Counted from the first letter of the stretch, positions 1 to 16,226 are shown. The stretch: DNA of 64,000 bases from Candidatus Aenigmatarchaeota archaeon (GCA_038997165.1 JAWBAK010000001.1:408917-472916), one strand, 5' to 3'. Numbers and translations: made by a program. Notes: generated by a model from the letters alone, not told the origin.

Positions 1-1
1 A

Positions 2-344
2 GGTGGATATCGAGGTTCAGGTGGTTCAGGCGGCATTTCAACAGGAATATATCTTTTAAATTCTTTCAACAATACATTTTTTTCAAACTCAATATTTAAT
101 TTAACAGGAGGAACAGGAGGAACAGGTGGATACTATGGTTCAGGTGGTTCAGGCGGTATTTCAACAGGAATATATCTTTTAAATTCTTTCAACAATACAT
201 TTTTTTCAAACTCAATATTTAATTTAACAGGTGGAACAGGAGGAACACGTGGAACAGGTGGATTCTATGGTTCAGGCGGCATTTCAACAGGAATATATCT
301 TTTAAATTCTTTCAATAATACATTTTTTTCAAACTCAATATTTA
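2..344 (+). repeat. 123-bp (41-aa) in-frame tandem repeat, about 2.8 copies visible, probably continuing left of the window
   Basis: ATTTCAACAGGAATATATCTTTTAAATTCTTTCAA starts at 35, 158 and 281; unit is GGxxGSGGSGGISTGIYLLNSFNNTFFSNSIFNLTGGTGGT. Confidence 0.95.
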
Positions 345-3300
345 TCTCTAATTTTTCTTTTTCAATCTACAATTCTTCAAATAATTTAATATATAATAAT
401 CTTTTAAGGAGTAGAAATATAGTACAATTTATTTCTCCAATTTTCCGAAACTTTTGGAATATAAGCAAAACCCTAATTGAAAATAAAAATATCGTAGAAG
501 GAGACTATTTGGGTGGTAATGCTTATTTGGGTTTAATTGAAAATTATTCTTCTACCTGTATTGATGAGGATGAAGATTATATTTGCGATTATCCATACGA
601 TTTAATAAATAGAAGATTTTGTGTAATTGGGGTTAATTGTTCGAATAATACGGATTTTCTTCCACTAAGGCCTAGAATAGCTATTATAACCTATGAAGAA
701 AATTTCCCAACTCTAAAGTATTTTTTAAATAAGAACACAACTCATATAATAAGATTTTCTGTAGAAAGTGTTATTGAAGATATTTTAAAAGTAGAAGTAA
801 ATTTACCTAATGAATTTGTTTTTATATCAGAATCTAATAGAACCTCAGCTGCTAATTCTATATTTTATAATATTTCTAATAAACTGATATGGGAAAATAG
901 TACACAATTACCATTAGTTCCTATAGGAAGGAAAGAGAGTTTTGAGTTTAGTATTATAACTCCATCTATTTTAGGAGAATATTCTTTACTAATTACTGTA
1001 TATTCTTCACAAGGATCATATATTAATCTATCTGTTCCTTTATATGTTAAAACAATTGCAATAAATTTCTCTATTGACAAATATGTTTCTAATATTAACG
1101 ATACAATAAAAATTTTTGGAAATCTTTTGTTATTACCAGATAATATACCTATAAATAATACAAAAGTTGTAATAAGTATAGATGAGGAAATTATAAGTGA
1201 TACATGTTTTTCAGATGAAAGTGGTATATTTGATTGCTATATAGAAATTTTTGATAAACCATTAGGTATACATAAAATAAAAATAAATACAACAAACTAT
1301 CAAGGAATTTATGGAGAAAACGAAACTTTTATAGAAATTAGAAATTTAACATTCTTTGATTTAGCTTTACTTGATTCTCATAATCAAATGGATAATATTT
1401 TAAATCCGAATGAAGTTTTTAAATTAACTTTAAGAATTAGAGAATTTAATGGTAGTAGTTATTTCGAAGTTACTGAAGGTAATTTTAACTTAACTATCGA
1501 TGGAATTAATTATTCCTTAATTTATGATAACGATTTATCAAAGTGGAAGACTTTAGAAACTTTTAGATCTAATCTTATTTTAGGAGATCATACAATTAAC
1601 GCATATATTACTGGATATTCTTTACCAAATAAAGTAATTTCAGATAATATTTTACTAAGTTTTAACTATCAACTTAAAAAGATTTTTATCGAAATGTATC
1701 CAACAAATAAAATTTATAATACAAGTTATTTAATTGGAAAATCGATTTTACTGCCTGATAACTTATCTTTAGTTAATAATTTAACTAATCTATACTTTAA
1801 TGACAACCTTCTATTTCAAAATTATACAGATGAATATGGCAATTTTACATTTCAATTCAACACTCCTTTATTGGGTATACATAAAATAAAAATAAATACA
1901 ACAAACTATCAAGGAATTTATGGAGAAAACGAAACTCTTATAGAAATTTGGGCACCAACAGAATTAACAGGATATTATGAAATTATTCAAGATTTTATTT
2001 CAAATTCAAGTTGCACAATAGCAACTATAAGAGTTGGAAATTATACTAGAATTGATACAAATGAACTTATTGAAGGAGAAATAAAAATAACAATAGATTC
2101 AATAACAAAAAACTGTTTTAGCAATTATTACTGCGAAGTTAACTTTACAGTTGGAAGTAATTGTGAAATTAGTGGAGGAAATAAAACTATTTTAGTTGAA
2201 GCTTTTAATGAAAGTAGTTTTTATGAAAAAGCAAGTTTTACCTTTAATTATTATTTAGAAGAAATAACAACAACTGCAAGAATTGTTACTCATAATTTAA
2301 CAGTTTATAATGTTACTCAAAATGAAGATAAAATAGAACAATTTAATATAACAATAATCAATACTGGAAAGGGAACTATGCGTAATGTAATGATTTCAAA
2401 ATATTCTGGACCATTTCAAGTAATTAACATAACTCCAATTCCAGATGTTTTGCCAGAAAGTGAAATTAATGTAACATTTAGCATTATAATTCCAGCGGGA
2501 ACAACTCCAGGGAGCTATAATCAAGTTTATAATGTTTCATGGATTAATAATAATTTACAAAAATCAAGCCCAATTTATTCTCCCATTCAAGTAATTACAG
2601 TTGTTGGAAATCCACAAATAGAGTTAAGTACTTACAATATAACTCGAGTTATTGAGCATAATCAAAGCTTTTCTTTAAATGTATTAATAAATAATACTGG
2701 AAACGCTCCTTTACAAGATGTTTGGGTAAATTATACTGAAATAAATCTTCCAAAAGAATGGATAACAATAACTCCAAATTATTGGGAAAGCATAGATAGT
2801 GGTTCAGCACAAAGTTTTTTAGTAACAATTAATATTCCATTAGCAACATCTCCAGGTTTATATAAAGGAATAATAAATGTTACTTCTCATATAGGTTATC
2901 CTGATGAAAGATTTAAGGAAATTGAAGTTAACGTAATAGTTCCGATAGATTCTAGATGGGAAATGGAAATTTTTGCTAGAAATGGAAGTAAAGTAGATCG
3001 AATAGAAGAAACTTATGGTTTAAACGAAGCTGGTTTGTTAGGAATTATAGTTATTAAGAATTTAGGAAATATACCTTTAAACTTTACTTTATCTTATACT
3101 TCTGTTGAAGGTTTTAATGATCCAAAAACTCAAAACCCAACGGTATTTGAGGAAAATAAAATTGTTAATGATGAACTTTTCAACCCAACTTATTTGTTTG
3201 TTGATAAACAGGAAGAGAAAGAAATAAAACTCTGGCAAAATGGTTTTCATGTTGCAGTAAGTTTTGGTTTAAACCTAACAATAGCTAACAATACCGCAAC

Positions 3301-6300
3301 CCCCTCAACAAACTTCACAATTTTTATTTGGCATATTGTTGATCAACCACCATACATAACTAATTTAACATATAGCGAATTTATTGAAATTAAAAAGTTG
3401 CAAATAATAAGAGCATTTTTTGATGATGATCAAGATCAACTAAATTTAATTTATTTAAATATAACATTACCAAATTCAACAATCGATAATATAATTTGTA
3501 AAAGCGGAAAAAGTGGAAGCTTAACAGATGGTTATCATAGTTGCAGCTATTATCCACCAATTGAAGGAATTTATAATGTTAATTTAACAGCTTGCGATTC
3601 TGGAAATAAATGTAGAACAATAAGTTTTAATTTTACAGCTTTTGCAAAAACTCAATTATCAATTTCTCCAATCGATAACTATTATTATGTATACAATATT
3701 ACTCAAATAAATTCTGCTACAATTTCTTTAAACATTTATATTAGAAATTTAAACGATACAGTTAGTGCGTATAATGTAACTTTAACATCTTCGCCACCAG
3801 CAGATACAAATTGGATAATTCATTCTATAAACATATCCCAAATTTTACCAAACACAACTATATATACAATGCTTAATATAACAATTCCCCAAGGAACTAG
3901 TGCAAGGGAATATACTATTAAACCATATGTAACTTGGCAAAATCCAGATGAAAGTATAGGAATTGCTTATTCTTCTCAAACTATAACAATAAATGTTTTG
4001 CCAACAAGAATTTTAAATATTAGTGAATATCCAAATAGTTTATTAGTAAATCATAATTCTTCAATTTCTACAAACTTTACTATTCAATCTATAGGTAATT
4101 CAGAAGTAAGAAATATAACATTCTTATGTCAAAGAGAAACAACTTTATGTAATTATATTAGTTTTTCTCCAAGCTTTATTCCAAGTTTAAATGCAAACGA
4201 AACAATAAACATTACTTTAACTATAGATTTGCCATTAGGTTTTTCTAGTGGAAAATATTATCCAATAATAAATGTTACTAGCATAGATGATATCAAACAA
4301 TTTGAAATCGAAATTAATGTTCCAGAAGATTATAATTATTCGATAGATAAAGAAGAAATATTGTTAAAAATATTAGCTGGAAAAAATATAACTAAGGAAA
4401 TTTTGAATATAACAAATATTGGAAATAAATTATTAACATTTAATATAAGCCTAGAAGGAAATGTAACAGAAATATTGAGCTTAGTTGAAAATTATAAAGA
4501 AATAAATCCAGCTCAAAGCTTTGTTCTTATTGCAAATATTAGTCCACCAAATTACTTATCGATTTACGAAGGAAACATTTCAATAAATGAAATTAAACTA
4601 GGAATTAAAAAGGTACCAATAAGAATAGAAGTTTATCCTGCTGAAATAGTTATTAATTATCCAAATTCTGAAGCTCCAATTATAGATGTTTTAGAGAATC
4701 AAAAAATAGAAATAAATTTAACTTTTAGAATAGGAGATGAAATAATAACTTCAAACACATCTTTTACAATTTTAATTTCTAATAATACATGCAATATAAG
4801 TAAAGTAGAAGTAATAAATGATAATTGGATAATTGAATGTAGCTTACCAAAAAATGAAGATGGAAAATGGCATGATTTAACTATAAAAGCTTATTATGAA
4901 ACTTATGACATTTTAGTTGAAAAAACAGAAGTTAATGCAATATATTATAAAGATATTACTCCACCAAAATTAATTTCAAAAGAAATTCCAAGCGTAGAAT
5001 TTCCAAATAACGTAACAATAAAATTAAATTTAAGCGATAATGTAGCTATAGATAAAGTTTTAATGTATATAAAGCAATTAAACAAAACTTATGAATTATT
5101 AACAGAAAATAACATTACTTGGGAAATTACGATAGAAAATTTGGAGCCAAACGATTACGATTTAATATTTATAATAAACGATACAACAAACAATACATTA
5201 ATATTTGAAGATTATTTTGAAGTATACGTTTCTAAAAACATTTGGGTTAATATAACAAATAGCAGAGATGAATATGTTAGCATAAACTTTACGTTTTATA
5301 GAAATAATACAAATCAAATATTGCAAAAAGAATATGTATATGGATATAAAAACTTTACAGTTCATTTAAGAACTTACGATTTATTAATAGAAAGTAATGA
5401 GGCAAAAATAAAATTATATAACTTATCTACTTTTGATTTACCAGACGATTTTATAAAATACGATAAAGTTTATCCAACAGAAGTAAATCTTTATAAGCCT
5501 TTAGGAGGCTTTGCAATAATAACTCCAATAGAAATCGATTCAACAATAAGAATTTATTATGACATTTCAATAGCTCAGCAATATGGAGCAATAGAGGATA
5601 ATTTAAAAATAATTTATTGTAATAGCTGGGACTTTTATCAAAAAACTTGCTCAGAATGGATTCAATTACCTTCTAGAGTAGATAAAAGATATAAATTTGT
5701 AGAAGCAGAGACTAAATTTAAACAAGGAGCATATTTAGTTGCTGAAGGAATAAGAAAAGAAGCAAGATTAGATATTTATGATCCATTACCAATAGATGTT
5801 CATCATTGGCAAAAATATACTATTAGATTTACTATTCAATCGAGCGGAACAGATCCAGTAAGTAATATAAGAGTTGAATGTTTATATGGAACTGTTTGCT
5901 ATGAATTTAATCCAGAATATATTCCATTTGTAGGAACTTTAATGCCTGGAGAAAGCAGAGAAATAGAAATTAATGTAACAATTCCAGCTGGTTATAATGC
6001 AGGAAATTATGTTGGAACATTAAGAATTATAAGCGCAGAAGGAATAGAAAGAATTACATATCTAAGAGTTAATGTTTTAAATAACTATAGTTTTATTACT
6101 AATGATTATTTCGAAGTTAAAAAAGGAAAAGGCTTTGGAGTTTTAACCAATTTAACAATAAAAAGCATTGCAAATAACGATTTATTATTAAAAATAAATA
6201 CTTCTCAAAACATTTCAACTCTAAGTGAATTTATTTTAAGGAAATTAGAAGAAAAAACAATTCCAATATATTATAATTTAGATAAGGAAGGAAATTATTT

Positions 6301-9300
6301 AGAAAAATTAATTTTACATAACGAGACTCTTAATATTTCAAAGGAAATTCAGTTTAATATAACAATTGTTAACTTTACAATATTTTTATTAAATCCAACA
6401 AATCAAATAGAAATTTATCCAAACCAAACTCTAAACATTTCTTTAAAAACATTTTTTGAAGAAAAAGAAATTAAAGAAAATATTTCTTTTAGAGTTTTCT
6501 TAAACGAAAAAGAATGCAAAATAATTAATATTACTTATAATGGATCGTTTGAAATTTCTTGTATAGTTCCAATAACAAAAGTTTTTAACGATTTAATAAT
6601 AGAAGCATCTTATGGAGAATTTACTTCTTATTTAAAGAGAGAAAATTTAATTAAAGTAATAGATAATATAGAACCAACAGTTAAAATTCATACTCTTGAT
6701 TTTGAAATAAACAAAATAAACGAAATAATTGCCGAAATAGATGATAACGATATTATAAAAGAAGTAACTTTTGTTTTAGTATTTCCAAATCAAACAGAAA
6801 TAGTTTTAATTCCAGAAAAAATAGATAATTTATATAAATCTAGCGTTTTTATAGAAGAAAAAGGAGATTATTTAATAAAAGTTATTGCTATAGATAACTC
6901 TTCTAATTCGAAAATAGAGCAAAAGTTAATAAGAGCTGGGGAAAAAGTTAGAATTACTACAAAAGCTATCGATATAGATAATAAAATTGTAAAAATGTAT
7001 ATAGATTTAATTAATCCAATTTCTAATCAAAAAGAGTATGAATTAAGACCAGATGAAAACGCAACAATAAATCAAACAATATTTGCTGGAAAATATAATT
7101 TAAGAATAAAAATAGAAGATTCTGAAATAATTTATTTCGATGTTATTATTAACAAATCCATAGATGATATAGTTAAAATAGATGTATTTAATGTTCATTT
7201 GGCAAACATTTCTAAATTAAGAAATAGATTTTTTGCGTTTGCAATTAAAGAAAATTTCGAATTTAATAATTATACATTAATTTTTGATATTTCTCAACAT
7301 TCTCATTTAATTTTAAAGGTCGAAAATTTAAGAATTTATAAGTGTAAAGATTGGATATTAGAAAGTAGAGAATGTAATTCAACTTGGATAGAAATAATTC
7401 CAAAAATTGATTTAAAAGCTTCAAAAATATTTTTCGAATTTAATTCAAGCTCAGCATATTTATTTGCAGAAGCAGTAATATGTGGAGATGGAATTTGTGA
7501 TATATTAGAGAATTGTAATAATTGTCCAATTGATTGCGGTCAATGTCCAACAACACCTTCTATACCTTCTATACCATATACCTCGCCTATAAGAGAAGCT
7601 CCATTACCTTCTATTGATTATTCAAAAATGCAAGAAATTCTAAAACAAATTGCAGAAAAAATAGAGGTTAGAACAGAAGAATTGTATTTTGAGTTAAAGC
7701 AAGGAGAAAAAGAAATTAAGAAAATATACATAGCAAATAATAAAGAAAAGGATGTTTATGCAGAGATAGAGCTTTATGGTGATATTGTTAAGTTCTTGAG
7801 GTATGCAAACAAAAGGATTTTAATAAACAAAAAATCTACAAATTATTTTGAAGTTATTGCTGAGATTCCAAAAGATCAAGAAGCTGGAATTTATAGAGGA
7901 TATGCTAAAATAATAATAGAAAATGAATCCTTTATAGTTCCTATAACTGTTAAAGTTATTCCAGCAGAAATGAAACTTTTAGATTTAAAAATGAGTTTAT
8001 TAAGCGATAAAGTTAAGCCAGGGGATTATTTAAGAGCAGAAATAATATTATATAACTTAGGAAAAACAAAAAGAGTTGATGTTAACTTAACTCTAAGTTT
8101 AATAGATAGTGAAAATCTAGTTGAAATTACAAGAGCAGAAGAAAGTTTAGCAGTTGAGACATCTTTAACAAAAATATTTTCACTAAAAATTCCTAAGGAT
8201 ATAATAGAAAAAAGATATTTAGTTAAAGCAATAGCGACATATTTAACAGAAAATATTAAGCAAGAAGCAGTAGCAAGCGCATTTGTAACTATTGAAACTC
8301 CATTATTGGAAAAAGAAATTTTAGGTATGCAATTAAAAACTTTATTAACTTATTTCTTAATATTTAGCTTTGGTTCAGCAATTTCTTATATAGCTATAAT
8401 TTCATACATTAAAAAGAAAGAAAAAGAAAAAAGGTTTAAAGTAACTATAGATTTTTCAACCTTACCACAACCTTCTGAAAATTCTGCATTTATTGGAAAT
8501 ATTGCGGAAACAGCGAGAAGAGCATTTATTTATTTAGATGATTTAAAAATGCATACTTTAATAGCTGGAGCAACAGGTAGCGGAAAAACTATTAGTGCAA
8601 TGGTAATTGCAGAAGAAGCTTTATTAAAAAATAAAAATGTAATTGTTTTTGATCCAACCGCACAATGGACAGGTTTCCTAAGAAAATGTAAAGAAAAATA
8701 TATGCTTAAAGAATACTCTAAGTTTGGAATGAGTATTAAGCAAGCAAGAGGTTTTCCAGGAAAAATAAAAATAATTACTTCGCCATATCAAAAAATTAGA
8801 TTAAAAGAAATTATTGAAAATCCAAAGGGAAATATTTATATATTTGTTCTTAATAGATTAAGGCCAGAAGAAATAGATATATTTGTTGCAAACACTATTC
8901 AAGAAATATTTAATTCTAGATTAGAAGAAAGTAAAGATTTAAGATGTTTAATAGTTTACGATGAAGTTCATAGATTATTGCCAAAATTTGGTGGTAGTGG
9001 AAAAGGATTTTTAGCCTTAGAAAGAGGGGTAAGAGAATTTAGAAAGTGGGGAATAGGTTTGGTACTAATTTCTCAAGTTTTAAGTGATTTTGTTGGAGAA
9101 ATTAGAGCAAACATAGGAACAGAAATACAATTAAGAACAAGATATGAAGGAGATTTAGATAGAATAAAAATGAAGTATGGAGAGGAATTTGTTTCTCAAA
9201 TAGTTAAAGCAAATATTGGTACAGGAATGATTGTTAATAGCGAATATAATAAAGGAAGACCTTATTTTGTTACTTTTAGACCAATATTACATCAAGTAAC

Positions 9301-9838
9301 AAGATTAAGCGAAAAAGATTTAGATGAATATGATAAAAGAGATAGAAAAATTGAAGAATTAAAGTTCTATATAGAAGAATTAAAGAAGCATGGAATAGAC
9401 GTTTTTGATATTGAAACAGAATTAAATTTAGCAGAAAGTAAATTAATGCAAGGAGCTTTTGATATTGTTGACATATATCTAGAGGGAATAGAACCAAGAA
9501 TTAAAAAAGAGTTTGAAAAAAGAAAAATTAAAATTCCAAAGTATGAGGAATTAACAATAGAAAAGAAAGAGATAGAAGAAATAGTTGAAAAAGCTAAAAA
9601 AGAAAGAGAAAGAGTAGCTGAAAAAGAGAAGAAAAATTATGAAGAAATACTTAAAGAAATTAACGATATAGAGGAAATGATAAAAAACCTTAGAAGAGAG
9701 GGAAAAGATACATTTGATTTGGAAATAGATTTAGAAAGGATAAAATCAAGAATAAAAATATATGAAAAAACTAAAGAAGAAAAAATATTAAATGAAATAG
9801 AAGAGATGCTTAATAATATAAAAAGTTTGAAAAAATAA
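2..9838 (+). CDS. Giant surface protein (beta-helix, Ig-like/NEW3-type repeats, Cys-rich motif, single TM helix) fused to a C-terminal HerA/VirB4-like (DUF87-type) P-loop ATPase; 5'-truncated, more than 3278 aa
   Basis: The frame is open from nt 2, 169 codons upstream of the TTG at 509. N-terminal Gly-rich beta-helix repeats with a NosD-like cap (WNISKT..GGN..C.DEDEDYICD.PY..DFLPL); many IP.G..PG.Y motifs; CGDGICD..ENCNNCPIDCGQC (~7481-7546); TM ~8342-8410 followed by KKKEKEKR; Walker A AGATGSGKT (~8564-8590); Walker B LIVYDEVH; REFRKWGIGLVLISQ. Confidence 0.9.
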   Translation, partial: GGYRGSGGSGGISTGIYLLNSFNNTFFSNSIFNLTGGTGGTGGYYGSGGSGGISTGIYLLNSFNNTFFSNSIFNLTGGTGGTRGTGGFYGSGGISTGIYLLNSFNNTFFSNSIFISNFSFSIYNSSNNLIYNNLLRSRNIVQFISPIFRNFWNISKTLIENKNIVEGDYLGGNAYLGLIENYSSTCIDEDEDYICDYPYDLINRRFCVIGVNCSNNTDFLPLRPRIAIITYEENFPTLKYFLNKNTTHIIRFSVESVIEDILKVEVNLPNEFVFISESNRTSAANSIFYNISNKLIWENSTQLPLVPIGRKESFEFSIITPSILGEYSLLITVYSSQGSYINLSVPLYVKTIAINFSIDKYVSNINDTIKIFGNLLLLPDNIPINNTKVVISIDEEIISDTCFSDESGIFDCYIEIFDKPLGIHKIKINTTNYQGIYGENETFIEIRNLTFFDLALLDSHNQMDNILNPNEVFKLTLRIREFNGSSYFEVTEGNFNLTIDGINYSLIYDNDLSKWKTLETFRSNLILGDHTINAYITGYSLPNKVISDNILLSFNYQLKKIFIEMYPTNKIYNTSYLIGKSILLPDNLSLVNNLTNLYFNDNLLFQNYTDEYGNFTFQFNTPLLGIHKIKINTTNYQGIYGENETLIEIWAPTELTGYYEIIQDFISNSSCTIATIRVGNYTRIDTNELIEGEIKITIDSITKNCFSNYYCEVNFTVGSNCEISGGNKTILVEAFNESSFYEKASFTFNYYLEEITTTARIVTHNLTVYNVTQNEDKIEQFNITIINTGKGTMRNVMISKYSGPFQVINITPIPDVLPESEINVTFSIIIPAGTTPGSYNQVYNVSWINNNLQKSSPIYSPIQVITVVGNPQIELSTYNITRVIEHNQSFSLNVLINNTGNAPLQDVWVNYTEINLPKEWITITPNYWESIDSGSAQSFLVTINIPLATSPGLYKGIINVTSHIGYPDERFKEIEVNVIVPIDSRWEMEIFARNGSKVDRIEETYGLNEAGLLGIIVIKNLGNIPLNFTLSYTSVEGFNDPKTQNPTVFEENKIVNDELFNPTYLFVDKQEEKEIKLWQNGFHVAVSFGLNLTIANNTATPSTNFTIFIWHIVDQPPYITNLTYSEFIEIKKLQIIRAFFDDDQDQLNLIYLNITLPNSTIDNIICKSGKSGSLTDGYHSCSYYPPIEGIYNVNLTACDSGNKCRTISFNFTAFAKTQLSISPIDNYYYVYNITQINSATISLNIYIRNLNDTVSAYNVTLTSSPPADTNWIIHSINISQILPNTTIYTMLNITIPQGTSAREYTIKPYVTWQNPDESIGIAYSSQTITINVLPTRILNISEYPNSLLVNHNSSISTNFTIQSIGNSEVRNITFLCQRETTLCNYISFSPSFIPSLNANETINITLTIDLPLGFSSGKYYPIINVTSIDDIKQFEIEINVPEDYNYSIDKEEILLKILAGKNITKEILNITNIGNKLLTFNISLEGNVTEILSLVENYKEINPAQSFVLIANISPPNYLSIYEGNISINEIKLGIKKVPIRIEVYPAEIVINYPNSEAPIIDVLENQKIEINLTFRIGDEIITSNTSFTILISNNTCNISKVEVINDNWIIECSLPKNEDGKWHDLTIKAYYETYDILVEKTEVNAIYYKDITPPKLISKEIPSVEFPNNVTIKLNLSDNVAIDKVLMYIKQLNKTYELLTENNITWEITIENLEPNDYDLIFIINDTTNNTLIFEDYFEVYVSKNIWVNITNSRDEYVSINFTFYRNNTNQILQKEYVYGYKNFTVHLRTYDLLIESNEAKIKLYNLSTFDLPDDFIKYDKVYPTEVNLYKPLGGFAIITPIEIDSTIRIYYDISIAQQYGAIEDNLKIIYCNSWDFYQKTCSEWIQLPSRVDKRYKFVEAETKFKQGAYLVAEGIRKEARLDIYDPLPIDVHHWQKYTIRFTIQSSGTDPVSNIRVECLYGTVCYEFNPEYIPFVGTLMPGESREIEINVTIPAGYNAGNYVGTLRIISAEGIERITYLRVNVLNNYSFITNDYFEVKKGKGFGVLTNLTIKSIANNDLLLKINTSQNISTLSEFILRKLEEKTIPIYYNLDKEGNYLEKLILHNETLNISKEIQFNITIVNFTIFLLNPTNQIEIYPNQTLNISLKTFFEEKEIKENISFRVFLNEKECKIINITYNGSFEISCIVPITKVFNDLIIEASYGEFTSYLKRENLIKVIDNIEPTVKIHTLDFEINKINEIIAEIDDNDIIKEVTFVLVFPNQTEIVLIPEKIDNLYKSSVFIEEKGDYLIKVIAIDNSSNSKIEQKLIRAGEKVRITTKAIDIDNKIVKMYIDLINPISNQKEYELRPDENATINQTIFAGKYNLRIKIEDSEIIYFDVIINKSIDDIVKIDVFNVHLANISKLRNRFFAFAIKENFEFNNYTLIFDISQHSHLILKVENLRIYKCKDWILESRECNSTWIEIIPKIDLKASKIFFEFNSSSAYLFAEAVICGDGICDILENCNNCPIDCGQCPTTPSIPSIPYTSPIREAPLPSIDYSKMQEILKQIAEKIEVRTEELYFELKQGEKEIKKIYIANNKEKDVYAEIELYGDIVKFLRYANKRILINKKSTNYFEVIAEIPKDQEAGIYRGYAKIIIENESFIVPITVKVIPAEMKLLDLKMSLLSDKVKPGDYLRAEIILYNLGKTKRVDVNLTLSLIDSENLVEITRAEESLAVETSLTKIFSLKIPKDIIEKRYLVKAIATYLTENIKQEAVASAFVTIETPLLEKEILGMQLKTLLTYFLIFSFGSAISYIAIISYIKKKEKEKRFKVTIDFSTLPQPSENSAFIGNIAETARRAFIYLDDLKMHTLIAGATGSGKTISAMVIAEEALLKNKNVIVFDPTAQWTGFLRKCKEKYMLKEYSKFGMSIKQARGFPGKIKIITSPYQKIRLKEIIENPKGNIYIFVLNRLRPEEIDIFVANTIQEIFNSRLEESKDLRCLIVYDEVHRLLPKFGGSGKGFLALERGVREFRKWGIGLVLISQVLSDFVGEIRANIGTEIQLRTRYEGDLDRIKMKYGEEFVSQIVKANIGTGMIVNSEYNKGRPYFVTFRPILHQVTRLSEKDLDEYDKRDRKIEELKFYIEELKKHGIDVFDIETELNLAESKLMQGAFDIVDIYLEGIEPRIKKEFEKRKIKIPKYEELTIEKKEIEEIVEKAKKERERVAEKEKKNYEEILKEINDIEEMIKNLRREGKDTFDLEIDLERIKSRIKIYEKTKEEKILNEIEEMLNNIKSLKK
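1265..1948 (+). repeat. 75-bp near-identical direct repeat (1265-1339 and 1874-1948) within the giant gene
   Basis: GGTATACATAAAATAAAAATAAATACAACAAACTATCAAGGAATTTATGGAGAAAACGAAACT(T/C)TTATAGAAATT, one mismatch; encodes GIHKIKINTTNYQGIYGENET(F/L)IEI. Confidence 0.95.
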
Positions 9839-9844
9839 ACAAAT

Positions 9845-11455
9845 TTATTCAACAACTAAAAAATCTTTATCTTTAATCGCTTCTTCAATTTGTTTTTTCA
9901 TAATCTTTATCTTTAATAGCTCTTTTTTTATTTCGCTATCTTCCCCTCTAAATTCTCTTATAACTTCAGATATAGTTTTTAAGCTATTTCCAAGTTCTTT
10001 AAGTACTTTTATAAGATTAAGCCAATAAATATTAACTTTTATTTGAGTTTTTTCTTGAGCTTTCTTTAATGTTTCTATTTCTTCTAACAAATTATTAATA
10101 ATTTTCTTAGTATTTTCTAATTCATTTTTAAAATTGTTTATTTCGTTTAAATTTAAATTAGACATATTTTTTATTCTTTCTATTTCTTTATTAATTTCTT
10201 CAGAATTTTTTTCAAAATTATCCAAATATCTTTGAATTTCCACAACTCTTTCTAATAAATTTTCTATTCTTTTTTGATCTATTTCTTTTTTTTGTTTTTC
10301 TAAGACAAAATTTTTTAGTTTTTCTATTTCAGAATTTATTTCTAAAAAATTTTTTGAAAAGGTATTTAAGGAATTTTCTAAGGAAGTATACATATTTAAA
10401 ATGTTGCTTATTTTATTTTCTACTTCAATATTTAAGTTATTTTTTAAAGAGTTTATTAAATCAAATAAAATTTTAATATCTTTTTCTGTTTTTTCAAAAA
10501 AGCCTTTTATTTTTTCAATTTCTGTATTGAACGTTTCAATTTTTTCAAAAAAATTTTTTTCTTTTATTATACTATTATTTTTGATTTCTTCAATAGTTGT
10601 TCTAATTTCATTAAAATTATTTTTAAGATATTCTATATTTGAAAATAAATCCTTTATTTTTTCAATTTCGACTATTTTTTCTTCTATATTTTCTATTTTA
10701 CTCTTTAAAGAATGTTGATTAATTTCTAAATTTTTTACAGTATTTTCAATTTTTAAAAAATTTGAAAAAGTCTCAAATTGAGGTTTAATTTCTTTTTCTA
10801 CATAATTTTTTAAAATTTTTATTTCCTCTTTTATGTTTTCAAAAATTTTATCAAATTCTTCAACTTTTTTAATTTTTTCTAAAACTTCTTCTATCTTTTT
10901 TTCTTGATAGGATATAAATATATCTATTTCGTTAATTTTGTTTTCGAATTTGCTAATATCTAAACTATTAATTCTATTTTTTAATTCATTAATTTTGTTT
11001 TCCAAATTTTCTATATATTCTTTTTTTAAATTTTCTATTTTATTAAAAACTTCATTTTTTAAATTTTCAAAATTTTGAAGATTTTGAGATAACTGATTTT
11101 TAATCTGATTTATATCTTTTAATTCATTTTTTAATTTATTTATTTCGTTTAAAATTTCTTTAACAGTATTGAAATATTCTTTTAATTTTTCAGAAATTTC
11201 TTCTACTTTTTCGTATTTTCTTTCTAATTTGGAAAGCTCCAAATTCCTAATTTTTATAATTTCATCTTCCAAATTCCTAATTTTTAGAGGTAAGTTTTCA
11301 AAATTTATTAAAAAGTTTTTAACTTTTTTATCGAATTCATCAATTTTTTTCTCAACCTCTTTTAATTCTTCTTTTAAATTTTCAAACTCTTTTTTTTCTG
11401 ATTTTTTTATTAGGAATTTTTTCTTTATCTCTTCTAATTCTTTTGAAAAATCCAT
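9845..11455 (-). CDS. Long coiled-coil protein (536 aa), function unknown
   Basis: E/K/I/L/N-rich heptad pattern throughout; no ATPase motif. Confidence 0.8.
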   Translation of the reverse strand: MDFSKELEEIKKKFLIKKSEKKEFENLKEELKEVEKKIDEFDKKVKNFLINFENLPLKIRNLEDEIIKIRNLELSKLERKYEKVEEISEKLKEYFNTVKEILNEINKLKNELKDINQIKNQLSQNLQNFENLKNEVFNKIENLKKEYIENLENKINELKNRINSLDISKFENKINEIDIFISYQEKKIEEVLEKIKKVEEFDKIFENIKEEIKILKNYVEKEIKPQFETFSNFLKIENTVKNLEINQHSLKSKIENIEEKIVEIEKIKDLFSNIEYLKNNFNEIRTTIEEIKNNSIIKEKNFFEKIETFNTEIEKIKGFFEKTEKDIKILFDLINSLKNNLNIEVENKISNILNMYTSLENSLNTFSKNFLEINSEIEKLKNFVLEKQKKEIDQKRIENLLERVVEIQRYLDNFEKNSEEINKEIERIKNMSNLNLNEINNFKNELENTKKIINNLLEEIETLKKAQEKTQIKVNIYWLNLIKVLKELGNSLKTISEVIREFRGEDSEIKKELLKIKIMKKQIEEAIKDKDFLVVE

Positions 11456-11456
11456 T

Positions 11457-12503
11457 TTAACTTTCAGCTAAAATTTTTAAAAAATTTAATATTTCAGAAA
11501 TATTTTTGATAACTTCATTATATTTTTTTTCTAACTCGTTTATTCTTATATTTAAGTCTTTGTATTCTAATTTTGAGAATTCCTCAATTTTTTTATTAAT
11601 TTCATTTTTCATTTTATCGATTTCTGTTATTTGTTTAAATACTACATTTTTTAATTTTTCTATTTCACTTTTTTTAACAAAATCGTTTAAATTTATATTT
11701 TCTATTTTATTTTCCAAATTCCTAATTTTTAAAATATAATCTTCTAAAATTTTTAACTTTTCAAAAATTATTTCTCTTTCTTCTTTTAATTTATTTAATG
11801 TTTCTCCAAAAATTTTCAGGTCTTGAGAAATTTGAATTGCTTCTATTTTTTTTCTTAATTCTTCTTCATATTCTTTTATTTTCTTTAATCTATCTTTAAG
11901 TTCGTTTATCTCTTCTTTTCTTATAAAACTACTTGATAAAACTTTTAGCTCGTTTACATCTTTAACAAATTCTTTAAATTTTTCTTTTAGTAAAGATATT
12001 TCTTTTTTTAATTCTAAAAATTCTTCAAATCTCTTATTCATTTCTAAAAAAATTGCCTCAATTTTAGAAGATGTTGAAAAAATTTTTGTTTCTGATTTTT
12101 TAATTTCACTTAAATCTTTTTTAATATCTTTTTCAATTTTATCAAATTCTTCAAAATCTTTAAATCTAATATAAACTTTTCTTATTTCTTTTAATTCTTC
12201 AATAATTTTGTTTAAAAGAGTTTCATTACTTTCTATTTTTGCATTTATAACTTCTATTTTTGCATAAAACTCATTAAATTTTTTAATAATTTCTTCAGGT
12301 TTTAATTCTTCAACAATTTTAATAGTTTTTTCAAAGGAAGTTTTTAATTCAGCAATTTCTCTTTCTTTATCTACTAAAGAGTTTTTAATTTCTCCAATGC
12401 GTTCATTTAAAAAAGAAATTCTATTATTCAATTCTTCTTTAATTTTTATTAGAACATCAACTTTGGCTTTTAATTTTTCTATGTCAACTTCCAAATTTTT
12501 CAT
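11457..12503 (-). CDS. Coiled-coil protein (348 aa), function unknown
   Basis: Continuous heptad repeats; its stop lies 1 bp from the start of the downstream coiled-coil gene, suggesting an operon. Confidence 0.8.
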   Translation of the reverse strand: MKNLEVDIEKLKAKVDVLIKIKEELNNRISFLNERIGEIKNSLVDKEREIAELKTSFEKTIKIVEELKPEEIIKKFNEFYAKIEVINAKIESNETLLNKIIEELKEIRKVYIRFKDFEEFDKIEKDIKKDLSEIKKSETKIFSTSSKIEAIFLEMNKRFEEFLELKKEISLLKEKFKEFVKDVNELKVLSSSFIRKEEINELKDRLKKIKEYEEELRKKIEAIQISQDLKIFGETLNKLKEEREIIFEKLKILEDYILKIRNLENKIENINLNDFVKKSEIEKLKNVVFKQITEIDKMKNEINKKIEEFSKLEYKDLNIRINELEKKYNEVIKNISEILNFLKILAES

Positions 12504-12613
12504 AATATTAATACTATTAGTTATCTATTTTTATTTATTTTAATGTTAAAAATTTTCATTTTATTTTAACATTTTAACAAAATCTTTATATATTTATTTA
12601 AAAATTAAATATT

Positions 12614-13123
12614 ATGGAATTAATTAGAATAATAATTCTTTCAGCGGCTTTTTTAGTTGTAGTAGGTGTTGGGGGTTTAATATATAATGCTAATTTTGTT
12701 CAAATAGAAGCTGCTACTTCTAATTTTGTATTAGTTTTAGTTGCGTTATTACTTTTAATTTTTGCGGCTTATTTGCTATTAAAACAGGATATAAAACTTC
12801 AATTCAAAAGATTATTTTTAGAAAAAAGCGATGAAGCAACATTGCTATATGTTAAAAACGAATTAAAAAAATTAAAAAATACTTTAGATGAAATTAAAAA
12901 AATAAATAAGAGGAATGCAAATAAGGTTTTAAAAAACGTAAAATTAGGCTTAGAAAAGTTAACTCCATATAAACCATATTTATCAAATATTTTTATCGAA
13001 GGAAAATTCTTGGAAAATATGAATAAAATACTTTCCTTCAATAAAATTACTTCTAACAATCTTTCTGAATTTTCTGTTGCAATTAAAGAATTAAAAGAAG
13101 AATTAAAAGAACTCAATTTATAA
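12614..13123 (+). CDS. Membrane protein with two N-terminal TM helices and a soluble helical C-terminus
   Basis: Hydrophobic segments IIILSAAFLVVVGVGGLIY and FVLVLVALLLLIFAAYLLL. Confidence 0.7.
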   Translation: MELIRIIILSAAFLVVVGVGGLIYNANFVQIEAATSNFVLVLVALLLLIFAAYLLLKQDIKLQFKRLFLEKSDEATLLYVKNELKKLKNTLDEIKKINKRNANKVLKNVKLGLEKLTPYKPYLSNIFIEGKFLENMNKILSFNKITSNNLSEFSVAIKELKEELKELNL

Positions 13124-13158
13124 TTTTTTGAATATTATTGAGTTTTTATTTTATTTAT

Positions 13159-13259
13159 GCCGGGGTAGTTTAGTGGTAGAACGCCGCGCTCATATTTAAT
13201 GAGCTTTGAATCGATGATAAGAAACGCGGAGGTCGTGGGTTCAAATCCCACCCCCGGCA
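13159..13259 (+). tRNA. tRNA-Met(CAT), elongator type, with a 29-nt intron at 37/38 (13195-13223)
   Basis: Acceptor stem GCCGGGG/CCCCGGC plus discriminator A; anticodon stem CCGCG/CGCGG around CT-CAT-A^A; T arm GTGGG-TTCAAAT-CCCAC; CCA not encoded. Confidence 0.92.
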
Positions 13260-13404
13260 TTGTAGTCAATTTTTATTTAAATCTAAATAAAACAAAGATG
13301 TTAGATTTGTGTTTTGTTTTTGTTAATGATGTGCGAAATTTTTATTAATGAAAAATATTTGGGTATCAATTAAAGAATAGTGACATAAGTTTTTAAATTA
13401 TTTT

Positions 13405-13620
13405 ATGATTTCAATTAGATTAGTTTTATTTCTTTTGATGATAACTATAGGATTTATTGTATTAATTTCTGGAACTATCCTTTACTTTACGATTGATGGA
13501 AAAGTCTGGAAAAAATAGAGATTTTTGGAATTAGCAAAAAGGATTGGAAATAAATTCATTCTAATATCTTAATAGAAGGATTATTCTTCAATATTTTAGA
13601 AGCTTAATAAGAAATAAATC
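13405..13620 (+). pseudogene. Decayed small membrane protein, DUF4405-like
   Basis: MISIRLVLFLLMITIGFIVLISGTILYF, then after a frameshift IFGISKKDWK*IH; resembles the SG.ILY...FLGLSK..W..IH pattern of DUF4405. Confidence 0.55.
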
Positions 13621-13622
13621 AT

Positions 13623-14212
13623 ATGAAAAATAAGAATTTTTTCAAAAAAGTTGCAAGGATTTATGAATACAGAGATAAAAAGAAGAAATTCAAGAAGAAT
13701 AAAAAGACTATAAAAAGAAAACTAATTGAATTGTGTTTTTATATATTGGTTGCTGGTAATAATTTGGAAAAAACTTTAGAAATTTGAGAAAAAATCTAAA
13801 AATTTAGGTAAAGATGAGTTAAGTAGAACCTAAAAAACTTAGAATATAGATTTTATAACATTAGGTCTAAATACATAGTAGAAAATCGAGAAAAATTAAT
13901 TTATTAGAAGATTTTAAATGTGATGGGAATTTTAGAAAAATTTTGATAGAAAATTTCTATGAGATTAGGTATAAGAAGGCTATCGTTTTTTTAGAAATAT
14001 AGACTGCAATAACTTTTCTATAATTGATAGACATGTCTTAAATTTTTTAAAGAGTTTTAATTTTAAAAAGGAAGTTCTAAAAAGTTTAAATGAAAAACTT
14101 ATCTAGAATTAGAAAAAATACTTAAAAAATAGTACACGAAATTGGAATTACATTGGCTAAGTTAGATTTTTGTATTTTTTATTATCAAGCAAATAGAATT
14201 CATAAAAAATAA
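13623..14212 (+). pseudogene. ogg: 8-oxoguanine DNA glycosylase/AP lyase (archaeal Ogg2, MJ0724-like) pseudogene
   Basis: Colinear fragments in shifting frames: ELCFYILVAGNNLEKTLEI*, YRFYNIRSKYIVENRE, ENFYEIRYKKA (from GIGYKEA), FRNIDCNNFSIIDRHVLNFL, YLELEKIL, GITLAKLDFCIFYY; several stops and frameshifts. Confidence 0.85.
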
Positions 14213-14615
14213 ATATTAAATTAGTTATCGTGGTCTATGATTTTCGATATTTTACTAATTTTCATTTTTTGTTTCTTTTAATTACTCAATATTTTATTAA
14301 ATTAATTCTTTCAAGAGTTTTGTATCAATTTTAAACATGTTTCTAGTTCTGTGATTTGAAATAAATATCACTGCTAATATTTCGAATAATAATGTCGAAT
14401 ACATAATAATATAATAGATGAAGAAAAACATTTCTCAATATTTTAAGCAAATTTTGAAATTTTGATAGATAGCTTATATTTTCTTTTTATTATAAGATTT
14501 AAATATTTTCTTCTTTATATGTTTTTCTCTCGTATAGAATATACATACATACACTACCTCTTTTTATTGATATCTTCTTTTTATTTTAATAAATTATTTT
14601 GGTTCCATTTTTACT

Positions 14616-16226
14616 TTAGAATTCTGTTTTTATTTCAAAATTTTTATATTTTTCTTCAAATTCTTTATCTAATATATCACGCTTTAAATAATAAGGTTTA
14701 AGATCTTCAAGTATAGTAGTTGGACGTTTATCCATGATTGCTACCATCCTATAAATAGCATCTACTATAAATTCTCTATACTCTGGATTAGTCAACAGTA
14801 AAGTAGCTAATTTTTTAATTCTATCGGTATGTTCTCTACTTGTGTCATTTGTGTTGAAAATAGCATGAGTTAACTCTTCCAAGAGAGCTTCAATAAGATG
14901 AGCACACCAATTATCAGTATTACAAGATTTGAGTAGAGATCTTCTTATACCAATTTCTCCTTTAAGAAGAGATAATAAAGCATATCCATATTCATTTTTT
15001 AATTGCTCATCTAATGGTTCATAGATTACAACTTCCCAAGTAGGAATAGTGTAAGGAAGAAATTTTTTTACAATTGTATTTAAAATATTATAAATTTTTC
15101 TTTCATCCTCATCTAATTCTTCATACTTAAATTTTCTTCTTTTTAAATTTTTGTGTTTTTCTATAAATTCTAAACAAGAAGGCAAAATTCCTAAAGAGGC
15201 TAAACTTTCTAAGAGTGGTGTCGATTTTATAACTTTTGCACCTTTATATGATGCTTCTTCTCCTAGATGATCTGGAAATTTAACAACCGCATTTTCTCCA
15301 AATACTAATAACCATGCATTTCTAATAGTTTGAATAGTTTGGTTTATTTGTTCATTCATTTCTTCTATGGATTGAATTTTAATCATAGATTCAAATGTGT
15401 TTTTATTATCCCTAATATCTTCAAATATTTTTTTCCAATATTCTAAGCTATTTATTTTTAGCATATAACTAAGTAGAGACGTTTTTACATCTATTATGTT
15501 AACTACATTTCTTCCTTCTGATATTCTTACTAAATTAGGATTAAAATTATATCCCCAAGAGAGTGGTTCTTCTATTTTAGAAATAAATAAACCACCCACA
15601 AAAATTTTTCCTTCATCTCTAACAATTTGCATTTCATAATTAAAAATATTGTTTGATGTATCTCTAGAAATCTCGTAAACAATTCTATTATCATTAGGTT
15701 TTATTAAATTCTTCTCCAAAATTTCTTTTATTTCACTTTCCTTAATATCCTCTCCTTTAAGTATTACTTTTGTACCATTAATTTCATTTTTAGTTCTATA
15801 AAAATTAATTTTAAAAGTTCTAACTCCATCTTTTTCAACTATTTCTGGCTTAGCAGAATAATTCTTAAAATAAATTTCTACCTCATAACCATTTCTTAAT
15901 GCAACTACTATTGCTAGTTTCATACCTTCGTTAAATCTGCCTATATATCCTTTATCAATTGATTTGTTTTGTGAGCTATATCCAAAATAAAAATCTTTTA
16001 TATTTATTGATTTACCTTTGTTATATATTTCTACTCTTTCCGAAGAGATGTTTATTTCAATGTTTTTCCAATTACCATTTTCTGCATCTATTGCATTAGA
16101 TATAAATTCTCTAATTATATCCCACAAACCCCAATAAGATCTATATCCTTCTATATTTATTGGATAGTGGATTTCTTTCTTTTCTTCAAATAATTTTTTA
16201 ATAAAAGATTTTAATTTACTGATCAT
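14616..16226 (-). CDS. GHKL (HATPase_c-like) ATPase with a C-terminal zincin-like motif
   Basis: WGLWDIIREFISNAIDAE (N box), YNKGKSI, GYSS..K..IGRFNEGMK (G boxes), NGTKV; C-terminal LLEELTHA..D.SR. Confidence 0.75.
   Translation of the reverse strand: MISKLKSFIKKLFEEKKEIHYPINIEGYRSYWGLWDIIREFISNAIDAENGNWKNIEINISSERVEIYNKGKSINIKDFYFGYSSQNKSIDKGYIGRFNEGMKLAIVVALRNGYEVEIYFKNYSAKPEIVEKDGVRTFKINFYRTKNEINGTKVILKGEDIKESEIKEILEKNLIKPNDNRIVYEISRDTSNNIFNYEMQIVRDEGKIFVGGLFISKIEEPLSWGYNFNPNLVRISEGRNVVNIIDVKTSLLSYMLKINSLEYWKKIFEDIRDNKNTFESMIKIQSIEEMNEQINQTIQTIRNAWLLVFGENAVVKFPDHLGEEASYKGAKVIKSTPLLESLASLGILPSCLEFIEKHKNLKRRKFKYEELDEDERKIYNILNTIVKKFLPYTIPTWEVVIYEPLDEQLKNEYGYALLSLLKGEIGIRRSLLKSCNTDNWCAHLIEALLEELTHAIFNTNDTSREHTDRIKKLATLLLTNPEYREFIVDAIYRMVAIMDKRPTTILEDLKPYYLKRDILDKEFEEKYKNFEIKTEF

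Follow-up and report, generated by a model that had tools for sequence, protein, structure and literature searches.

We have analysed a stretch of 64,000 nucleotides (C1:408917-472916, hereafter the window) from the genome of a hot-spring Aenigmatarchaeota archaeon (DPANN), a 94.5% complete metagenome bin of 652 kb in 4 contigs with 24.5% GC. The window opens inside a giant gene on the plus strand, and the gene for a 348-amino-acid (aa) helical protein lies downstream of it on the minus strand. There is good reason to regard the locus, as to its identity, its architecture and its partner gene, as a giant adhesin-ATPase gene of the SPEARE type with a conserved helical partner. SPEARE proteins were described in Hamm 2019 (PMC6642349) as very long nanohaloarchaeal proteins, mostly extracytoplasmic and with a transmembrane (TM) segment towards the C-terminus; in that study the extracellular and the cytoplasmic parts turned up in different size fractions. 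The features of the two genes are as follows, the short motifs and the linker having been placed by motif position.

2..9838, plus strand: the last 3278 codons of a giant gene of the SPEARE type (ectodomain, TM helix, HerA-like ATPase and helical tail), a stop-free frame open at its 5' end
1..344, plus strand: 123-nt (41-codon) tandem repeat, 2.8 copies, 92% matches, coding for beta-helix rungs of the GGTGG type
38..526, plus strand: right-handed beta-helix (NosD-type) tip (Pfam NosD, aa 13-175, E 3.8e-7)
527..7480, plus strand: sequon-rich stalk of beta-sandwich modules (NEW3/NPCBM_assoc, CARDB-like; Pfam matches at aa 888-955, 1251-1313 and 1938-2008)
7481..7549, plus strand: Cys-rich motif CGDGICD..CGQCP
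7547..7612, plus strand: Pro/Ser/Thr linker
7613..8341, plus strand: membrane-proximal ectodomain of about 243 aa, with weak G.Y-type conservation before the TM helix in the family alignment
8342..8410, plus strand: single TM helix, aa 2781-2803, the sole strongly hydrophobic 19-mer of the protein
8483..9305, plus strand: P-loop ATPase core, FtsK-HerA superfamily (DUF87/HerA clade), from Pfam, PDB profiles and fold
8567-8590, plus strand: Walker A, GATGSGKT, with K2862
8645-8668, plus strand: VFDPTAQW
8948-8971, plus strand: Walker B, LIVYDEVH, with E2988
9032-9076, plus strand: REFRKWGIGLVLISQ (REFRKWG..ISQ motif)
9311..9835, plus strand: helical tail containing two units that resemble each other, of which the first hardly varies across the family
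9380-9424, plus strand: tail unit one, LKKHGIDVFDIETEL
9689-9733, plus strand: tail unit two, LRREGKDTFDLEIDL
11457..12503, minus strand: conserved all-helical partner of 348 aa, with its core at aa 1-200 and the motif ER..R.SE.IGE.R, from a family profile and the loci survey

The frame of the giant gene (2..9838) is free of stops over 3278 aa, in agreement with an initial annotation of this DNA that had reported an open reading frame of more than 3278 aa. Its 5' end is left open only by a run of 96 N (C1:408821-408916) that lies within the repeat array and directly precedes base 1 of the window. The 123-nt unit, which encodes a 41-residue repeat (GGTGG...NSIFNLT), is present on both sides of this gap, and the copy number is therefore uncertain. 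Upstream of the gap a frame of 502 codons begins with MKSLINKLFFVVFLILFISISS and ends in the same 123-nt unit, and a Pfam match to Beta_helix (PF13229) was found in this piece. The giant gene most probably starts there, with what reads in the sequence as a Sec-type signal peptide. We infer that this piece and the frame in the window are one gene from the common repeat unit and the common strand, in which case the whole protein would have about 3.8 thousand residues plus those hidden by the gap.

The distribution of residues along the protein changes sharply at the TM helix. All 118 N-x-S/T sequons precede it, where the composition would predict 41, and none follows it, against an expectation of 1.7; 32 of the 34 cysteines also precede it. 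A basic flank, KKKEKEKRFK, follows the helix directly at 8411-8440, and the C-terminus is therefore taken to be cytosolic. The beta-helix tip, Ig-like repeats, sequons, Cys motif and Pro/Ser linker that the initial annotation had described as extracellular-looking are all in place, and so is the single helix with a basic inside flank. The product is thus predicted to be a type-I membrane glycoprotein with an exported, sequon-rich ectodomain of at least 3280 aa.

The ectodomain is far from uniform in its conservation. Compared with the relative P0003, whose ATPase is 93% identical, the identity is 37-59% over aa 1-1250 and 93-98% over aa 1251-3000. A second relative (P0224) carries about 1250 additional residues between positions corresponding to aa 608 and 624 of the window protein. 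This mosaic pattern suggests that cassettes may be exchanged at the host-facing tip. On a much smaller scale the Pro/Ser linker is polymorphic among strains, with in-frame deletions of 3-6 nt at 7552-7565 in 1 of 4 metagenome runs (described below).

For the cytosolic part the Pfam matches of the window protein were DUF87 (E 7e-10) and ResIII (E 3e-7, aa 2847-2992). We aligned a family of 34 sequences, and Pfam counts across these were made at E<=1e-3. The Walker A residues G/T/G/G/K, the DPT.QW motif, the aspartate of Walker B together with the next histidine, REFRKWG, the SQ pair and R285 were invariant in all 34. DUF87 was matched by 34/34 members and HerA_C by 33/34, next to weak matches to TrwB_AAD_bind (24/34), FtsK (13/34), T4SS-DNA_transf (12/34) and AAA_10 (11/34); the VirB4 N-domain PF03135 was matched by 0/34. 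The match of the window protein to PF10412 covers just positions 15-56 of a profile of 387 positions. In the PDB profile search HerA chains scored E 4.5e-9 to 3e-6, DotL 4e-4 and TrwB 0.12. An AlphaFold model of the cytosolic part, made from the alignment, reached a predicted local distance difference test (pLDDT) of 92.7 and a predicted template modelling score (pTM) of 0.88, and the helices of the tail (model residues 335-404 and 419-508) had a pLDDT of 81-96 by 10-residue block. The best Foldseek matches of this model were SIR2/HerA and the Sulfolobus HerA. With VIA-align the Z scores were 25.9 for HerA 4d2i (root-mean-square deviation 2.8 over 250 residues), 24.2 for DndH-C, 23.5 for VirB4 4ag5, 18.9 for TrwB and 17.6 for FtsK. 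HerA and VirB4 cannot be told apart by fold alone, and it is the sequence profiles that favour HerA. The cytosolic domain is accordingly predicted to be a P-loop ATPase of the HerA clade with all catalytic motifs intact. The initial annotation had called it HerA/VirB4-type, with an intact P-loop and two similar units in the tail; these motifs and units were all recovered, and of the two families HerA is favoured by the sequence profiles, with VirB4 nearly tied in fold. Besides the two giant genes described here and below, this genome contains two further DUF87 genes.

The fusion of adhesin-like ectodomain, TM helix and ATPase was compared over nt 7000-13200 with Logan contigs of 4 other hot-spring metagenome runs belonging to 4 studies. 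The contigs cover 7000-12383 without gaps (X2), 8129-9910 (X8), 7000-8554 and 9325-12901 (X6), and 9473-12904 (X3), and they reproduce both the ectodomain-TM-ATPase junction and the convergent layout of the genes downstream. We also searched for homologues with the C-terminal 509 aa of the window protein. Among proteins of 1802-5737 aa, 246 of the 2014 candidates scored had E<=1e-3, and the 120 listed all had E<=1e-112; among those of 892-2545 aa, 572 had E<=1e-50. At 50% identity the homologues fall into 1067 clusters at E<=1e-3 (365 at E<=1e-30), and more than 611 loci were found in species-representative genomes. Walker A was present in 216 of 222 homologues, and 206 of these 216 have a hydrophobic 19-mer 50-70 aa before it. 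The number of residues N-terminal of Walker A varies from 13 to 5694. All named sources are archaeal (Aenigmat-, Woese-, Pace-, Nanohalo-, Micr-, Nano-, Alti- and Hadarchaeota). The contigs bridging the fusion and the fused homologues with invariant catalytic residues both speak for the fusion that the initial annotation had described.

A second SPEARE-type paralogue is found in the same genome at C1:58054-85608. With 9184 codons (27.5 kb) it makes up about 4% of the genome, and the ATPases of the two giants share 44% identity. Even longer open frames with a family ATPase, of 13,300-14,500 codons, were found in the genomes G096, G024, G061, G099, G141 and G029 of the phylum sample described below. 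If these are single genes, they exceed the protein of 9,409 aa that Reva 2023 (PMC10266531) calls the largest in cultivated archaea.

The giant gene and the 348-aa helical protein form a two-gene module; the usual arrangement has the partner immediately after the giant gene and in the same orientation. We surveyed 80 loci from species-representative genomes, 64 of which extend for 1500 nt or more beyond the ATPase gene on its downstream side. A partner homologue starts within 5 kb downstream of the ATPase in 45/64, on the same strand in 44 of these 45 and with a median gap of 108 nt. The same 45 loci were recognised by a profile built on the conserved core of 200 residues, with zero matches elsewhere in the loci. 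Within the partner family E34, G37 and P69 are invariant. The profile has exactly two matches in the genome studied here, each adjoining one giant ATPase gene; the second partner gene (C1:85611-86843) begins 3 nt past the stop of the 9184-codon paralogue. Among 151 genomes sampled from the phylum the ATPase was found in 76 and the partner in 78, with both genes in 73, the ATPase only in 3, the partner only in 5 and neither in 70, so that 73 of the 81 genomes having either one have both; the genomes of a phylum are not independent, and these counts describe a pattern and overstate its statistical support. For 98 of 107 ATPase matches from this sample the partner lies within 5 kb downstream on the same contig, in 97 cases on the same strand, the single opposite-strand case being this window, and several of the 9 matches left without a partner are at contig ends. 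ATPase and helical partner are thus near-obligate companions in Aenigmatarchaeota. A subfamily of TM-ATPases of about 740-800 aa was found at the loci L024, L047, L048, L055, L069, L074, L076, L077, L079, L080, L082 and L034; no helical partner was detected downstream in these, and the last of them has a KaiC-like gene in its place.

The partner resembles nothing more specific than a helical protein. Pfam gave only scattered coiled-coil families, PDB profiles only designed or generic coiled coils, and the Atlas only unnamed archaeal clusters. Its AlphaFold model was mediocre (pLDDT 71, pTM 0.33), with long helices and spectrin-like bundles; the model had no Foldseek match at E<=0.001, and VIA-align returned generic three-helix bundles (best Z 14.4), which is within noise for helical models. 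Many partner homologues have N-termini of the type MGLFGKKK, which we take to resemble those of ESCRT-III, and this is where the idea of an ESCRT-III/PspA identity arose. It was left without profile support, with no match of the Snf7 or PspA_IM30 profiles to the partner genes of this genome at E<=1 and neither family among the 25 listed of the 41 Pfam families matched by the partner. A complex prediction with the ATPase part (residues 36-509) and the partner core (1-215) scored 0.00, which is no verdict either way. The main-text passages considered of Hamm 2019, Reva 2023, Makarova 2019 and the Hamm 2023 preprint do not mention the helical partner.

The architecture of the giant protein has been published before. 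In Reva 2023 (PMC10266531) the giant proteins have a Sec signal peptide, Ig-like repeats, a TM segment, a cytosolic ATPase called VirB4/TraG-like and a terminal coiled coil, and Hamm 2019 (PMC6642349) gives the intracellular portion as the most conserved part of SPEARE, read there as a type III restriction enzyme. The latter paper also reports SPEARE-like sequences in Woese-, Aenigm- and Micrarchaeota and names RLG14629.1 as a match. This protein (P0044) and the C-terminal 509 aa of the window protein are 52% identical in an alignment that covers 87% of the query (E 8e-142). The link to SPEARE goes through RLG14629.1, the archetypes (5,998, 8,553 and 9,409 aa) being outside the length ranges searched. 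In the window protein we find the extracytoplasmic bulk with a signal peptide (given the inferred join), the single TM helix towards the C-terminus, the homologous cytosolic region and the terminal coiled coil. The initial annotation knew of no characterised system with this architecture; in this it has to be corrected, as SPEARE and the giant membrane-anchored extracellular proteins of the two papers (PMC6642349; PMC10266531) describe it. Its idea of contact-dependent translocation is close to the type IV-like secretion straw proposed in Reva 2023 (PMC10266531).

The window gene shares with SPEARE the signal peptide, an adhesin-like ectodomain, the single C-terminal TM helix, the P-loop ATPase and the terminal coiled coil, but comes from another phylum, the Aenigmatarchaeota of hot springs. 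It carries a beta-helix tip and NEW3/CARDB modules where the published proteins have laminin-G, WD40 or protease-like regions (PMC6642349; PMC10266531), and has no adjacent VirB4-type ATPase. Laminin-G is the most evident discrepancy, being given in Hamm 2019 (PMC6642349) for all nanohaloarchaeal SPEARE ectodomains, and PF13385 is listed for many homologues. We do not treat it as family-defining because the ectodomains are described as variable in both papers (PMC6642349; PMC10266531) and it is the cytosolic part that identifies the family.

HerA, found in the HerA-NurA helicase and in the SIR2-HerA and DUF4297-HerA defence complexes, shares the RecA-like core, DUF87/HerA_C and the best profile and fold matches. 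HerA is a soluble protein with an N-terminal barrel domain (HAS-barrel) and an adjacent NurA or other effector nuclease, whereas the ATPase of the window is anchored in the membrane behind a TM helix, carries an ectodomain and has a helical protein as its partner, with no nuclease family found among its neighbours in Pfam scans. VirB4, TrwB/VirD4 and FtsK/SpoIIIE belong to the same superfamily, and TrwB and FtsK also place a cytosol-facing ring ATPase after an N-terminal membrane anchor. Unlike all of these, the window protein has one TM helix and a giant ectodomain, with no VirB4 N-domain and no type IV secretion genes nearby.

Two further genes beside the module had been grouped with it as a module of coiled-coil and two-TM proteins.

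9845..11455, minus strand: coiled-coil protein of 536 aa, probably transcribed together with the partner gene; lineage-specific, found only in L004
12614..13123, plus strand: protein of 169 aa, two hydrophobic segments plus a helical tail; lineage-specific, found only in L004

Both genes, as well as the helical one at 11457-12503 (minus strand), are where the initial annotation placed them. The co-occurrence check kept only part of the module: the 348-aa partner is conserved, and the 536-aa and two-TM proteins are found together at one other locus, L004, the relative with the 93%-identical ATPase. The stop of the 536-aa gene is 6 nt from that of the giant gene, and a second coiled-coil-like gene after the partner was found in 1 of 41 loci. 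The simplest reading is a lineage-specific inversion, after which the partner and an acquired coiled-coil gene would stand as a convergent unit of their own. In 2 of the 4 runs the 536-aa gene has an insertion of 21 nt (7 codons, one heptad) at 10209. The similarity of its product to a coiled-coil protein of 1045 aa encoded near the paralogue (BLASTP E 1e-5) comes from low-complexity heptads and is unconvincing.

Two genes diverge from the giant gene just upstream of its start (C1:406100-407139); they encode a 252-aa ATPase of the MinD/ParA type and a winged-helix protein of 95 aa. A ParA gene is found near both giants of this genome (L091:7601-8368 for the one by the paralogue), and a homologue of the winged-helix protein near the paralogue (C1:100026-100409, E 1.4e-11). 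MinD/ParA was not retained as a member of the module, with a ParA homologue downstream of the ATPase in only 3 of the 80 loci; the upstream sides of the giant genes exceed the 10-kb flanks. Beyond the two-TM gene there is a tRNA match (RF00005, 65.6 bits) at 13159-13259 on the plus strand, which probably carries an intron, as the match is 101 nt long and had no ARAGORN call. In the following 1.35 kb or so (13260-14615) no open reading frame exceeds 54 aa, and Rfam gave nothing at E<=0.01. Further on, both on the minus strand, are a 536-aa protein with weak HATPase_c/sacsin-like P-loop matches (14616-16226) and an Lhr-type DEAD/DEAH helicase (16308-18887).

As to what such a protein might do, the HerA, VirB4, TrwB and FtsK families are ring translocases, and by analogy with them the ATPase probably forms a ring beneath the membrane. 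Such a ring would cluster several ectodomain arms at the site of contact with the host, where the variable distal ectodomain would determine the surface that is bound, and ATP hydrolysis might move a polymer, be it DNA or unfolded protein, through the membrane of the symbiont. We tentatively propose on this analogy that the ring and its helical partner could be a membrane-docked translocase motor and not a classical type IV secretion system. A bolder version, which we consider rather doubtful, is that ectodomain, TM helix, ATPase and partner would form a self-contained archaeal contact machine with six arms per ring, in which the partner couples hydrolysis to the passage of a host- or symbiont-derived polymer and the distal cassettes set the host range; it would stand apart from type IV secretion because there is no VirB4 N-domain and there are no type IV secretion genes.

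Several observations weigh against the SPEARE assignment or the translocase motor. The laminin-G family was undetected by Pfam in the whole giant protein and in six sub-segments of it, and the frame across the 96-N gap depends on the repeat unit and the strand. A detectable partner is lacking in 19 of the 64 loci, mostly in the subfamily of about 740-800 aa (12 of the 19), and the co-occurrence counts carry the dependence among genomes already mentioned. No other secretion-system components were found beside the giant gene, and PF03135 has no match at E<=0.01 anywhere in this 94.5%-complete genome. Finally, a ring of single TM helices is by itself a poor conduit.

This last point leads to the alternative that survives best, although we regard it as unlikely: an adhesin with an inside-out mechanical or regulatory motor, in which ATPase and partner would move no cargo and instead cluster, tension, recycle or release the arms, with ATP powering the build-up and breakdown of a lattice in the cytoplasm that holds the adhesins in place where the cells touch. 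There is a single TM helix per subunit and no obvious channel, the partner is a pure helical-bundle protein with neither enzymatic nor membrane domain, and no cargo-related genes are conserved nearby. The near-invariant first unit of the tail (D364, F366, D367, E371) also resembles a docking surface. Against this alternative, the closest relatives of the ATPase by sequence and fold (HerA, DndH, VirB4, TrwB, FtsK) are all polymer translocases.

That the protein is a component of a true type IV secretion system, a straw injecting effectors into the host as proposed in Reva 2023 (PMC10266531), seems improbable here. In two nanohaloarchaea that paper places a second VirB4/TraG ATPase with PF03135 immediately downstream, and in our own data the fold of VirB4 4ag5 is nearly tied with HerA (Z 23.5 vs 25.9) and there are the weak matches to TrwB_AAD_bind (24/34) and T4SS-DNA_transf (12/34). 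However, PF03135 is missing from both the 34 family members and the genome, within the thresholds given above, AAA_10 has no more than sub-threshold matches in the genome, no VirB4-like gene is among the recurrent downstream clusters of the 80 loci, and the sequence profiles favour HerA over the ATPases of type IV secretion.

A cytoplasmic restriction-endonuclease domain degrading imported DNA, as read in Hamm 2019 (PMC6642349), is very improbable. The basis of that annotation is reproduced by Pfam, as the window protein itself has the ResIII match (E 3e-7), but ResIII and DEAD matches span only the P-loop and Walker B part common to such NTPases, DUF87 and HerA_C score better across the family, the fold matches HerA-type rings and no nuclease domain was detected in Pfam scans of the window protein; Reva 2023 (PMC10266531) also rejected this reading. 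An assembly chimera of an adhesin gene and an ATPase gene would be conceivable in a metagenome bin with a 96-N gap within the repeat array of the gene, but its probability is negligible: contigs of the 4 other runs bridge ectodomain, TM helix and ATPase and the TM-ATPase junction recurs in 206/216 homologues, so that a chimera is contradicted for that junction and could concern only the one at the N gap.

We therefore return to the SPEARE-type gene with its partner, and to the translocase motor as our tentative proposal for it. Among the genes of many DPANN genomes those of the SPEARE type stand out most, and their products are the leading candidates for the apparatus of host contact; the two giants of this genome (27.5 kb and about 11.5 kb) occupy about 6% of its 652 kb. 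The locus adds nothing categorically new to this family. What it contributes is a case with an inverted partner, without a VirB4 gene and with a mosaic ectodomain. For type IV secretion this genome offers no support, and the comparison of sequences suggests that the distal ectodomain may be exchanged between near-identical strains. The companion pattern of ATPase and partner, the result on type IV secretion and the exchange at the tip can guide work in the cultivable nanohaloarchaeal systems.

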